The notes beneath the pieces were generated by a model, which saw only the letters and a list, made by a program, of their open reading frames with translations, was not told the origin of the DNA and ran no database searches. Position numbers and translations under genes: made by a program. From a virus, in IMG/VR virus record IMGVR_UViG_3300045988_089740: 64,000 nucleotides of DNA. One strand, written 5' to 3'. Position 1 is the stretch's first letter. Every line of letters begins with the position of its first letter. This document shows, piece by piece, positions 14,210 through 43,657 of the stretch.

Positions 14210-14353
14210 ATGTTACTGGCATTTCCGATGGTTTTAATTCCGCTGATATTGGTCGAGTGGATTAAAATAATAAAAGCAAAGGTACAGCCCTCGCCGTGTG
14301 GACTTGGAGGAAGGTTCATCACAGACAGGACGAGGCATGAAATTCCTAGATAG
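14210..14353 (+). CDS. 47-aa membrane peptide
   Basis: SD GAGGTG then ATG 14210; MLLAFPMVLIPLILVEWIKII... Confidence 0.3.
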   Translation: MLLAFPMVLIPLILVEWIKIIKAKVQPSPCGLGGRFITDRTRHEIPR

Positions 14354-14514
14354 CCTGTATCAGTACGGATTTATGATAATGAAATAGATATCCAAAACCA
14401 AATTTCCTCCAAATGAGTTACGACTGATACAGGCGTTCCAGGATAAACATAAATATAGCAATGGTGTTTTTGAAGTATATCACGTGCGGCAGGGTTGAGC
14501 GACTGCCGCAACAT

Positions 14515-14586
14515 AGCGCATTGGCGAAGCGGTAACGCACCGGACTTTGACTCCGTTATGCGTGGGTTCGAATCCCACATGCGCCG
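14515..14586 (+). tRNA. tRNA-Gln (anticodon UUG)
   Basis: Cloverleaf by eye: acceptor 6 bp + A1-C72 mismatch, D stem GCG/CGC, anticodon stem CCGGA/TCCGT, loop CUUUGAC, T-arm GTGGG-TTCGAAT-CCCAC. Confidence 0.75.
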
Positions 14587-14802
14587 TTCTGCATCGAGTT
14601 TATATCTTTTTCTTGGTGCAGATTGGATTTTCTTTTTCCTTTTTTAACGAAATACCCTTTAACCACCTATCGCAACGGCGATGACTAAAGGAACAGTCAA
14701 ACGTTCCGGGTGGTTTTAACCTTTGTTGCGGCTGGTGGCCAAGAACTGCAACAGTAGTAAAAAGACAGATATCACATCGACCCTGTATCTTTTTGCTACT
14801 CA
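14587..14802 (+). ncRNA. structured inter-tRNA spacer
   Basis: No ORF; junction AACCACC 14661-14667 / GGTGGTT 14709-14715 enclosing hairpins ATCGC-AACG-GCGAT and GACT..AGTC; further GTTGC..GCAAC stem. Confidence 0.35.
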
Positions 14803-14876
14803 GGAAGCTTAGCTCAGTTGGTCAGAGTAACCGGCTCATAACCGGTCGGTCCTGGGTTCGAACCCCAGAGCTTCCA
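14803..14876 (+). tRNA. tRNA-Met or Ile2 (anticodon CAU), elongator type
   Basis: GGAAGCT/AGCTTCC acceptor, D GCTC/GAGT (C11-G24), anticodon stem ACCGG/CCGGT, loop CUCAUAA, T-arm CTGGG-TTCGAAC-CCCAG. Confidence 0.85.
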
Positions 14877-15410
14877 TTTCTCCCGAAGCTGTCCATCCGT
14901 TTTGTGGATAGAAAAAACTGCCGAATGTGTGTATGTGGGTTGTTTTTCAGAAGGTACGTAACGGCGTAGCCGGATTTGAAAAAGCAACTTCCCGTTCGGT
15001 TCTGTCTCTGAGTTGAATATGTCGCCAATGAGTGCACGTTGACGACAGGGAGTTTTCAAGAGGCATTTCAGGAATAATCCTCCGAAACAACTCCGTGGGA
15101 CTGGCACGGATGAAAACAGTCTAGTGGAAAGCATAACACGATAAACCTATTGCTAACCCGGGAATCCGGGTTATTCGGAATGTGCAAGTAACTGGGAACG
15201 ACCTGGTCGTAGACTAGGTCTTGATGGTTCGAATCCATCCGTTCCGCTTGTCTGGAGCCTGAAAGTTTGGCGTGGGAATAGCGCAGGGCAGCGCATGGGA
15301 ATGTAATTCCGAGTTCCGGACATGTTTGCTGCCTATCGGATTGTAAAGTGGTCTCCCTTAAAGTAGGCAATAAGTGAACGTGTTGAAATGGTTCTTCCAG
15401 ATATGTACAT
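14877..15410 (+). ncRNA. candidate large structured ncRNA between tRNAs (GOLLD/ROOL-like or novel)
   Basis: 534 nt without credible ORF, flanked by tRNAs, many hairpins (e.g. AACCCGG-GAAT-CCGGGTT 15155-15172, GGAAT-GTA-ATTCC, GAAC..GTTC); embeds a tRNA-like unit. Confidence 0.35.
15176..15247 (+). tRNA. aberrant tRNA-like gene (anticodon GUA if canonical register)
   Basis: 72 nt in canonical register: acceptor CGGAATG/CGTTCCG (one G-U), anticodon stem CCTGG/CTAGG, loop UCGUAGA (C33), perfect T-arm GATGG-TTCGAAT-CCATC, but D stem cannot pair. Confidence 0.4.
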
Positions 15411-15482
15411 CGCAGGATGGAGAAGCGGAATCTCGCAAGGTTCATACCCTTGAGAACGGCGGTTCAAATCCGTCTCCTGCAA
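15411..15482 (+). tRNA. tRNA-Met (CAU), initiator-like
   Basis: C1-A72 mismatch and A11-U24 pair (initiator hallmarks); D GAGA/TCTC, anticodon stem CAAGG/CCTTG, loop UUCAUAC, T-arm GGCGG-TTCAAAT-CCGTC. Confidence 0.75.
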
Positions 15483-15598
15483 TTAATCCGTCTATCGTTC
15501 AGCGGATTAAAGCAAATTCTCAATATACCTTCTTTCTATGAATGTGGAACTCAACCCAATTGCTCTTTCATTAGAACAATTGACCGTGACAGACGTCA

Positions 15599-15669
15599 TG
15601 GAATGTAGCTCAGTGGTAGAGCAGTGACTTACAAGTCATGTGTCGCAGGTTCGATTCCTGCCTTTCCGA
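15599..15669 (+). tRNA. aberrant tRNA (Val-like UAC) with 6-nt anticodon loop
   Basis: Good D arm GCTC-AGTGGTA-GAGC and T-arm GCAGG-TTCGATT-CCTGC; anticodon stem GTGAC/GTCAT leaves loop UUACAA (6 nt); acceptor has U1-G72 and U6-U67. Confidence 0.45.
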
Positions 15670-15732
15670 TTCCGGTAAATTGCCATTATCGGAAAGCATT
15701 TCCAAAATGCTCAAATTTACCTTCTGATTGGT

Positions 15733-15795
15733 TCCGGTGGTTCACGTTGGGTGACGATGCGTGGTTCAAGTCCACCCACCGGACTTTTTATTTTA
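15733..15795 (+). terminator. tRNA-like minihelix acting as terminator of the RNA locus
   Basis: TCCGGTG/CACCGGA 7-bp stem enclosing TCAC-GTTGG-GTGA hairpin and T-arm-like GTGG-TTCAAGT-CCAC, followed by CUUUUUAUUUU. Confidence 0.45.
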
Positions 15796-15845
15796 TAGAA
15801 AAAGGTTACTTGGTGATAGCTGTGAATGTTGGGAGGGTGTAAAAA

Positions 15846-16121
15846 ATGAAAATTCATGAAGTGATACGTCTGAGAAATGTATACGGTGGAGAAACGACTC
15901 TTAATGACCTTGTAAGTCTAATACAAGGAAATAGAATTCATAGATGCCCGAAATGCGGCGGAAGTGGAACTACTATCAAAAGAGTAAATCGTGCACAATA
16001 CTGGGAGTGTTGCGATGATTACAAAGAAGTGGAAGTCACTTGCGACCTATGCAACGGTGAAGGATACACTGAGAAAAGATACGAGCCTAGAATGGTGCAG
16101 GATGGATGGAAATGCGAATAG
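15846..16121 (+). CDS. DnaJ-type zinc-finger (CxxCxGxG x2) protein
   Basis: SD GGGAGGGTG; CPKCGGSG and CDLCNGEG motifs. Confidence 0.55.
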   Translation: MKIHEVIRLRNVYGGETTLNDLVSLIQGNRIHRCPKCGGSGTTIKRVNRAQYWECCDDYKEVEVTCDLCNGEGYTEKRYEPRMVQDGWKCE

Positions 16122-43043: not shown

Positions 43044-43055
43044 TACGGTAAAACC

Positions 43056-43107
43056 AACAGGCTTACCCGACGGGGGACAAGCGGAAATGCCTTGCCGCCT
43101 GCCTGTT
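43056..43107 (+). repeat. hairpin repeat X1 flanking HNH gene
   Basis: AACAGGC/GCCTGTT stem; shares AGGCT...CCTGCCT frame and loop words with X2. Confidence 0.4.
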
Positions 43108-43158
43108 GATTTACATACATTTCAAGGCATCTTATATACGAAAGGCAGGTATTTTTCT

Positions 43159-43538: not shown

Positions 43539-43597
43539 CAGTAGGCTAGGTTGGCCGCCGAAAAGTGTAAACCTTGATGCACCTGCCTACTGTTTTT
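43539..43597 (+). repeat. hairpin repeat X2 flanking HNH gene (terminator-like)
   Basis: CAGTAGGC/GCCTACTG stem + U5. Confidence 0.4.
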
Positions 43598-43657
43598 ATA
43601 AATCAAGGATTCTGGCATATTATGGAGATGCCAACGACCAACAAGGAGGTTATCATT

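Follow-up and report, generated by a model that had tools for sequence, protein, structure and literature searches.

In the phage DNA analysed here (IMG/VR record IMGVR_UViG_3300045988_089740; its whole 64,000-nt stretch is called the window), two tRNA-Met genes enclose an interval, 14877–15410, in which two structured RNA modules, A and C, are separated by a tRNA-like unit. The order, all on the + strand, is tRNA-Met, module A, tRNA-like unit, module C and initiator-like tRNA-Met. From the comparison of related sequences, we give an even chance to the reading of a tRNA-punctuated cassette of a Lachnospiraceae (Blautia-type) phage, from which modules A and C would be released at tRNA-shaped elements as structured RNAs. 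In our best reading, the two modules fold independently, and a nearly invariant, pseudoknotted core of ~55 nt is the functional heart of module A. The initial annotation had described the interval as non-coding and hairpin-dense, flanked by tRNA genes, and had proposed either a GOLLD- or ROOL-like large RNA or something undescribed. The second proposal is the one that stands: the matches to Rfam 15 in the array are tRNA alone, and homologous phage regions are conserved and show abundant compensatory changes. Both flanking tRNA-Met genes, on the + strand, were recovered by ARAGORN and by Rfam.

Comparative evidence for the two modules

Homologues of the core were collected from IMG/VR by scanning for the exact pattern of its 3' segment, which returned at least 120 contigs. 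Together with five GenBank scaffolds and the window, the listed contigs form a set of 126 occurrences and 106 unique sequences. The scaffolds, found by blastn against GenBank phages, are unannotated human-faecal phage sequences, each matching another part of the query. Among GTDB species-representative genomes, the only real match to the core lies in a prophage of Blautia sp. MSJ-19, and for this reason we propose Lachnospiraceae as hosts; a match in Desulfomonilaceae was discarded as a chance one, the terminal hairpin of the core not following it. A search of the window for a further copy of the core found none, and no paper in the literature searched contains its sequence.

Module A is formed by a 5' domain and the conserved 3' core (Table 1). 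RNAalifold predicts 51 pairs for 26 non-redundant homologues, 26 of them with compensatory changes; with the P3 extension, P4 and the pseudoknot, which were read from the alignment, the count rises to 70 pairs. In these, 89.9% of the alignment cells are paired, compared to 37–43% when the partner is slid by 1–3 columns, and changes on both sides are found in 31 pairs versus 9–13 when slid. The covariation score is 0.323 versus a maximum of 0.111 for the slid partners, and the observed values were reached by none of 500 shuffles. Because MAFFT misaligns part of the pseudoknot region in one lineage, the formal covariation counts for the pseudoknot helices are depressed. Helix a reads CCGUG/CACGG, CUGUG/CACAG or AGUG/CACU, depending on the lineage, and helix b reads GACUG/CAGUC, GGCUG/CAGCC, AUCUACA/UGUAGAU, GGCAA/UUGCC or CCAGU/ACUGG. 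The P4 stem also differs by lineage (GUCGCCAAUG/CGUUGACGAC, UAUUAACG/CGUUAAUA or CCAUCAC/..UGAUGAC). The many G·U pairs would be C·A on the opposite strand, and therefore the RNA is placed on the + strand. A mimic of a Cas12a repeat, considered for the UCUAC...GUAGAU of one lineage, was rejected, as helix b covaries freely across lineages.

Within the core, the predicted pairings AGCA (15130–15133) with UGCU (15151–15154) and GUG with CAC are invariant throughout the sample. The terminal hairpin of the core does vary: a double change (AACCUGG/CCAGGUU) and a G·U variant were found in loci that had been chosen via module C and not by the hairpin pattern. Two known kinds of RNA were considered and discarded, namely a hammerhead-like core, which lacks the CUGANGA consensus in a by-eye reading and has no Rfam ribozyme match, and transfer-messenger RNA, for which neither ARAGORN nor Rfam gave a match.

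The apical loop of P4 carries in 91 loci a G/C-rich self-complementary tract, GUGCAC, GCGCGC or GCGC. In two lineages GCGCGC and GUGCAC are swapped on a shared stem (locus L015 versus L048, and L033 versus L133), that is, positions 2 and 5 of the hexamer change together and the palindrome is kept. As these two positions cannot pair inside one loop, the swap points to loop–loop pairing of two copies, and it suggests that the palindrome may be a dimerisation site of module A. The dimerisation site of HIV-1 is formed by GCGCGC or GUGCAC with purine flanks. The P4 loop resembles it in being a purine-flanked GCGCGC or GUGCAC (for example, AAGCGCGC and AGGUGCAC in relatives), but the two contexts have nothing in common, and the tract is reduced to GCGC in the commonest phage lineage. 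Homo-oligomers are known for GOLLD, ROOL and OLE (PMC12286853), and kissing loops assemble small phage-associated motifs (bioRxiv 10.64898/2026.07.01.735769).

Module C was studied by a separate scan of IMG/VR, in which 89 contigs gave 87 usable occurrences and 39 unique sequences from three lineages. For 16 non-redundant sequences, covariation was evaluated over 42 pairs in seven nested helices: 98.8% of the cells are paired versus 36–46% when slid, and double changes occur in 10 pairs versus 0–2. The G·U pairs place this module on the + strand too.

It might be argued that the interval is functionless debris, in which decayed tRNA genes and spacers look conserved through close kinship of the phages. 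The tRNA-like unit is indeed derived from a tRNA and the folding z-scores are modest. Against this, compensatory double changes (31 pairs in module A and 10 in module C) have kept 90–99% of the pairing, and the identity of the 5' domain drops to about 60–80% between lineages, whereas the core is nearly invariant. We regard debris as very improbable and, like membership of GOLLD or ROOL discussed below, as effectively excluded. Protein coding does not account for the interval either, as there is no credible open reading frame in it. Long stop-free frames exist on the minus strand, but they were not kept as protein: indels between lineages shift the frame, the peptides become wholly different, and some homologues have stops.

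tRNA-shaped elements and the ends of the modules

The tRNA-like unit is found where the initial annotation had placed it, with an acceptor stem, a T arm and the discriminator C15247. Its fold (z = −2.6) consists of the acceptor, a long hairpin and the T arm, whereas the 17 nt of the D region (15183–15199) are unpaired and form no D stem. Of the features of a tRNA, the unit has the 7-bp acceptor stacked on a 5-bp T stem with a UUCRANY loop; a D stem is missing, and the loop UCGUAGA of its anticodon-like arm has C instead of U at position 33. ARAGORN does not call the unit, finding four other tRNAs, and the Rfam tRNA model (RF00005) has no match there at E ≤ 10. Compensatory changes are seen within the subfamily of the window: a U·G pair of the acceptor is replaced by A-U (CGGAAUG/CGUUCCG versus CGGAAAG/CUUUCCG) and a G-C pair of the T stem by A-U (GAUGG/CCAUC versus AAUGG/CCAUU). 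The unit is clearly a tRNA derivative, and it occupies the site of a genuine tRNA in other phages.

The same arrangement recurs among the relatives. In all 126 occurrences listed, the terminal hairpin of the core ends 2–5 nt 5' of a tRNA-shaped element, which is a tRNA called by ARAGORN in 56 (Met 21, Tyr 15, Asn 8, Gln 6, Arg 3, Val 2 and Ile 1), a tRNA-like unit in 69 and a mutated tRNA-Tyr-like gene in one. Among the 40 unique units rejected by ARAGORN at these loci, 39 have 6–7 of the 7 acceptor pairs and a canonical T stem-loop (5 bp, with the loop UUCGAUU, UUCGAAU or UUCGACU) and lack CCA; the fortieth is the tRNA-Tyr-like gene, with a mutated T loop. The middle 35–40 nt of the rejected units are aberrant, with absent or odd D stems and with "anticodon" loops that have C33 and are variable or shortened in sequence.

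The modules begin and end at such elements. In 43 of 43 window-like loci, module A starts with the first base after tRNA-Met and is 265–351 nt long; its 5' end is set here by the 3' end of tRNA-Met 14803–14876. In 87 of 87 loci, module C begins directly after the 3' end of a tRNA or of a tRNA-like unit, and ~8 nt separate its own end from an initiator-like tRNA-Met or from a variant with the same body and an Arg-CCU anticodon. Its 3' end in the window is set by the 5' end of tRNA-Met 15410–15483. The core lies at most 420 nt upstream of module C by the exact pattern in 82 of these loci and as a near-exact variant in the other 5. The 1-72 pair of tRNA-Met 15410–15483 is mismatched (C15411 × A15481), and in the Rfam tRNA match this first pair is flagged as non-standard. 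This mismatch, N × A in relatives, is a hallmark of bacterial initiators; the sister gene with the CCU (Arg) anticodon on the same body was seen in loci L002, L040 and L098.

When sub-segments were compared by blastn with the first 125 loci listed, the segment 14877–15030 (A1) was found in 22, the core-bearing segment in 125, the tRNA-like unit of the window in 9 and module C (15248–15409) in 10. As the sub-segments are separable, the interval is treated as three parts: module A, the tRNA-like unit and module C. The modules recombine independently of one another and are found in differing combinations, which contradicts the single 534-nt RNA of the initial annotation. A long unprocessed RNA (≥534 nt) with the tRNA-like unit as an internal domain, in the manner of GOLLD, is in our opinion improbable. 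GOLLD can reportedly embed tRNAs, and the order of core, tRNA or tRNA-like unit, module C and tRNA-Met is co-inherited in 87 of 87 module C loci; however, module C is present in just 10 of the first 125 core loci listed, genuine tRNAs of seven identities substitute for the tRNA-like unit, and no helix between modules A and C appears in the alignments or the fold.

For the punctuated cassette, we propose the following mechanism. The array would be transcribed as a single precursor, in which host RNase Z would cleave every tRNA or tRNA-like unit that lacks CCA 3' of its discriminator, and RNase P would cleave at every tRNA-shaped 5' end. Two discrete RNAs with defined ends, of ~299 nt for module A and ~163 nt for module C, would be freed in this way. 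The tRNA-like unit, unable to decode, would be retained as a processing handle. What such units keep is just the acceptor stem and the T arm, and none of them encodes CCA. The acceptor with the T arm is said to be the minimal substrate of RNase P, and the absence of CCA reportedly determines the RNase Z pathway in Bacillus subtilis. Since decoding-dead units often follow the core, we think that the tRNA shape would serve the RNA and not the reverse. On this reading, module A would probably pair with a second copy via the palindromic P4 loop and work in trans, as a structured RNA particle, while the phage infects its host.

In the main rival explanation, the modules are structured leaders that act in cis on the adjoining tRNAs; they would control, order or insulate the maturation or folding of these tRNAs and would not be products themselves. 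The hairpin or the pseudoknot of the core might, for example, gate RNase P at the tRNA 5' end, possibly in answer to a ligand or a protein. Each module does adjoin a tRNA 5' end at the short distances given above, module C always accompanies one tRNA family (the initiator-like tRNA-Met), and further spacers of the array likewise end in tRNA-adjoining hairpins. Engineered leader riboswitches are able to gate RNase P (PMC8925977). However, 69 of the 126 listed elements after the core are non-decoding units, which leaves no useful tRNA to regulate, the identity of the downstream tRNA is freely exchangeable beside a nearly invariant core, and a 299-nt multi-helix pseudoknotted RNA far exceeds the needs of a leader. 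We consider this explanation unlikely, but the most probable of the rivals.

Several points weigh against the release of modules A and C as functional RNAs. Part of the apparent invariance of the core was imposed by the pattern used in the search, and the homologues belong to a few lineages of related gut phages, so that the covariation counts are not independent events. A putative closing helix of module A (14877–14882 with 15124–15129) shows one-sided changes only and is unsupported in the RAGATH-21-type relatives described below. A search within the window for a base-pairing target of the conserved 17-nt loop gave chance-level matches only. The P4 palindrome is 4 nt long in the commonest lineage (GCGC in the 7-nt loop CAGCGCA). 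Moreover, a stable hairpin placed 2–5 nt from tRNA position +1 could obstruct RNase P instead of helping it. The folding energies are unremarkable for single sequences: the z-scores against shuffles are −2.2 (all 534 nt), −2.1 (module A) and −0.8 (module C), and thermodynamic stability is too weak as evidence. The description as hairpin-dense thus has weak support from thermodynamics; that it exceeds chance is seen in the conservation among more than 120 phage contigs and in the base-pair covariation.

RAGATH-21 relatives and known RNA classes

At the gathering thresholds of Rfam 15, the array in the 64-kb window holds only four tRNAs, the other matches being two int-alpA RNAs elsewhere. At E ≤ 10, the region 14300–15900 has no match to GOLLD, ROOL or another large RNA, and the extra matches are noise around the tRNAs; 20 related loci match tRNA and RAGATH-21 only. 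Modules A and C are outside every Rfam family. A published survey of 10,006 uncurated viral candidate RNAs, which includes highly expressed Blautia-phage candidates and candidates upstream of GP20 genes, may already list parts of them (PMC10690425).

The proposal of GOLLD (RF01998) or ROOL (RF03087) in the initial annotation has consequently no covariance-model match in the window, in 14300–15900 at E ≤ 10 or in the 20 related loci, where the other large-RNA models are unmatched as well. The context, a Firmicutes phage with nearby tRNAs, is all that favours a diverged member; the conserved units are separable and measure 299 and 163 nt, against a multi-domain RNA of roughly 800 nt for GOLLD and about 580 nt for ROOL. 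We find such membership hardly conceivable.

Some relatives carry the core together with RAGATH-21 (RF03097), an orphan Rfam motif. In phages of ~44 kb and in the Blautia sp. MSJ-19 prophage, this motif lies 95–150 nt upstream of an identical core, hairpin and tRNA, with matches of 75–93 bits in eight loci (L001, L003, L004, L005, L029, L071, L122 and L126). The window itself has no match, either in the 64 kb at the gathering score or in 14300–15900 at E ≤ 10, and its 5' domain (14877–15090) is another, larger fold. In another sublineage, RAGATH-21 is replaced by a related unit with a T-loop-like hairpin. On the simplest reading, RAGATH-21 and the 5' domain of the window are alternative 5' domains of one core-defined RNA class; the Rfam model spans 76 nt only and excludes the core. 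From the sequence, the junction strand GGAG(G)UU of both 5' domains could pair with a conserved GAAACAACUC located 5' of the core. A closing helix shared with the RAGATH-21-type relatives was rejected, given that the 5' flank CCUCCUUUCU is invariant and the core segment variable. No paper in the literature searched mentions RAGATH-21 by name; RAGATH-18, of the same motif series, is a TnpB guide RNA (PMC11061315).

In the ~44-kb relatives and the Blautia prophage, the RAGATH-21 block has a head-morphogenesis gene on one side and a scaffold-like gene on the other. In several loci of this type, RAGATH-21 is flanked by two stretches with full identity to the 16S rRNA 3' end of Firmicutes, CCUCCUUUCU upstream and CACCUCCUU downstream (1325–1340 and 1461–1470 in locus L003, and likewise in L010, L029, L071, L122 and L126), and the strong AGGAGG site of the scaffold-like gene follows 3' of the block. 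These flanks could pair internally with the GGAGG inside RAGATH-21 or mimic an anti-Shine-Dalgarno sequence. Such features would suit a cis-regulatory leader of downstream protein genes, which would work through processive antitermination or control of translation and in which the tRNAs would be mere passengers: in the ~44-kb relatives a TATAAT-type promoter with a terminator-like hairpin precedes RAGATH-21, core and tRNA, the scaffold-like gene starts after them, and the two 16S-identical sequences precede the AGGAGG site. In the window, however, the cassette is inside a tRNA array, two tRNA-shaped units and a terminator-like site precede the next open reading frame, and the lineage lacks both RAGATH-21 and the paired 16S-like motifs. 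A gene leader is therefore, in our opinion, quite improbable.

Other systems can be compared with the punctuated cassette. In phage T4, the species 1 and 2 RNAs (rnaC and rnaD) are reportedly stable non-tRNA RNAs in the tRNA cluster, matured from the same precursors as the tRNAs, which is like the proposal made here; their sequence is unrelated, the phage and host are others, and they are smaller. The tRNA-like parts of MALAT1-mascRNA and MEN-beta are said to act as handles for RNase P and RNase Z, and the tRNA-like units of the TMER RNAs of gammaherpesvirus MHV68 reportedly serve as a processing handle too. In both, a non-decoding tRNA-like structure sets the end of a neighbouring non-coding RNA, as we propose, but these systems are eukaryotic or herpesviral and the cleavage was shown experimentally, whereas here it is inferred. 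With GOLLD and ROOL the modules share the Firmicutes phage origin, the place beside tRNA genes and multiple helices with pseudoknots. The modules are much shorter, modular and obligatorily adjoining a tRNA-shaped element, and they have no sequence or structure match to those RNAs. GOLLD and ROOL form homo-oligomers (PMC12286853), whereas for module A a conserved self-complementary loop is what the sequence offers. Only tentatively, as a possibility that we rate clearly below the cassette itself, we put forward a new class of phage non-coding RNA, defined by modules A and C: swappable 5' domains, one of them RAGATH-21, on an invariant pseudoknotted core, with a 3' end made by RNase P at a tRNA or at a decoding-dead tRNA mimic kept for this purpose, and self-association by an HIV-DIS-like kissing loop. 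It would be a small cousin of GOLLD and ROOL that carries its own tRNA-type processing handle. In a bolder variant, the core would be a natural sensor gating the access of RNase P to the adjoining tRNA.

Genome context and significance

The window is the genome of a tailed phage with almost all genes on the + strand. The tRNA array, also on the + strand, covers ~1.5 kb of non-coding DNA ~5 kb upstream of the terminase. The features of the cassette, the array and the genes used for orientation are collected in Table 1.

Table 1. Features of the cassette and its surroundings, with positions in the window
Feature	Position	Strand	Basis or remark
tRNA-Gln	14514-14587	+	ARAGORN, Rfam tRNA
tRNA-Met(CAU), elongator type, without encoded CCA	14803-14876	+	ARAGORN; Rfam tRNA 69.4 bits
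Module A, structured non-coding RNA (5' domain and conserved 3' core)	14877-15175 (299 nt)	+	comparative alignment
P1 hairpin	14889-14896/14904-14911	+	double-side changes in 5/8 pairs; 96.6% of cells paired
P2 long-range helix	14921-14929/14991-14999	+	double changes in 6/8 pairs
P2b long-range helix	14937-14944/14983-14990	+	double changes in 6/8 pairs
Small hairpin inside P2/P2b	14955-14958/14965-14968	+	double changes in 3/4 pairs
P3 helix, enclosing P4	15003-15009/15059-15065	+	double changes in 6/7 pairs
P4 hairpin	15021-15030/15037-15046	+	stem differs by lineage
P4 apical loop with self-complementary GUGCAC (15032-15037), candidate kissing-loop site	15031-15037	+	91 loci
H-type pseudoknot of two interleaved helices, a (15093-15097/15105-15109) and b (15099-15103/15117-15121)	15093-15121	+	lineage variants
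Nearly invariant ~55-nt core, UAGUGGAAAGCAUAACACGAUAAACCUAUUGCUAACCCGG-GAAU-CCGGGUU	15122-15172	+	at least 120 IMG/VR contigs, 5 GenBank gut-phage scaffolds, Blautia prophage
Core terminal hairpin	15155-15161/15166-15172	+	compensatory variant; loop 3-6 nt
tRNA-like unit, discriminator C15247, without CCA	15176-15247	+	sequence and fold
tRNA-like unit, acceptor (7 bp)	15176-15182/15240-15246	+	fold, compensatory change
tRNA-like unit, "anticodon-like" arm, loop UCGUAGA (C at position 33)	15200-15220	+	fold
tRNA-like unit, T arm, loop UUCGAAU	15223-15227/15235-15239	+	fold, compensatory change
Module C, structured RNA	15248-15410 (163 nt)	+	covariation, 89 IMG/VR contigs
C-P1	15249-15256/15396-15403	+	
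C-P2	15257-15261/15364-15368	+	
C-P3	15274-15277/15354-15357	+	
C-P4	15282-15284/15348-15350	+	
C-P5	15287-15297/15321-15333	+	
C-P6	15298-15302/15313-15317	+	
C-P7	15376-15379/15391-15394	+	
tRNA-Met(CAU), initiator-like	15410-15483 (15411-15482 when taken from the mismatched 1-72 pair)	+	ARAGORN; Rfam tRNA 55.4 bits
Odd tRNA	15599-15669	+	ARAGORN, cannot be named
Terminase	20565		window
SPP1-type portal	22837		window
Major capsid protein	25529		window

On the 3' side of the cassette there are two further tRNA-shaped units, a U-run terminator-like site (15768–15795) and then a small open reading frame. The first of these units, the odd tRNA of Table 1, has an anticodon loop of 6 nt (GUGAC-UUACAA-GUCAU), while the same body in relatives such as locus L082 has a normal CUUACAA loop and reads tRNA-Val(UAC). 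This body (acceptor UGGAAUG, D arm GCUCAGUGGUAGAGC) recurs in the units after the core of L003, L005, L006, L019, L046, L071 and L082, with very diverse anticodon arms that are called Met, Val, Gln or Ile or cannot be called. It looks like fast turnover of the anticodon arm or like deliberate non-decoding variants, possibly decoys for anticodon nucleases. The second unit (15733–15795) is a miniature tRNA-like unit with the acceptor UCCGGUG/CACCGGA, the T arm GUGG-UUCAAGU-CCAC and one middle hairpin. It is followed by UUUUUAUUUU, which the terminator scan flagged as well, and it is 95–97% conserved in L058, L083, L090, L105 and L111. The open reading frame, the first one 3' of the array (15846–16121, 91 aa), encodes two DnaJ-type CxxCxGxG zinc-finger repeats, with Pfam DnaJ_CXXCXGXG and Anti-TRAP matches below the curated cut-offs.

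In the spacer between tRNA-Gln and tRNA-Met, a hairpin of 38–40 nt (14718–14757; UUGUUGCGGCUGGUGGCCAAGAACUGCAACAG) keeps 92–97% identity across 27 loci despite an otherwise diverged spacer. The arrays of these phages also hold tRNA genes with an insertion of ~40 nt near the anticodon loop, seen as Rfam tRNA matches 113–121 nt long (L002 1570–1690, L102 2723–2836, L100 718–832 and L040 11133–11246). Elsewhere in the window, the two int-alpA RNAs (RF02996), both on the + strand and above the gathering score, lie ~480 nt apart at 43055–43127 (42.6 bits) and 43539–43608 (55.2 bits).

Phage RNAs of the GOLLD and ROOL type beside tRNAs are a standing puzzle, even though cryo-electron microscopy has recently shown their self-assembly. 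The locus described here is a smaller, modular and abundant relative in kind from Lachnospiraceae phages of the human gut, and it offers three handles on the problem: its ends are defined by tRNA-shaped elements, its 55-nt core is almost invariant, and its palindromic loop predicts dimerisation. A cultured host exists in Blautia sp. MSJ-19 with its prophage. Moreover, RAGATH-21, a motif without an assigned role, gains a context as what appears to be one of two alternative 5' domains before the same core. Finally, the decoding-dead look-alikes suggest that tRNA shapes are retained by phages because they help to process RNA and not because they serve translation, which matters for the counting and interpretation of phage "tRNA genes".

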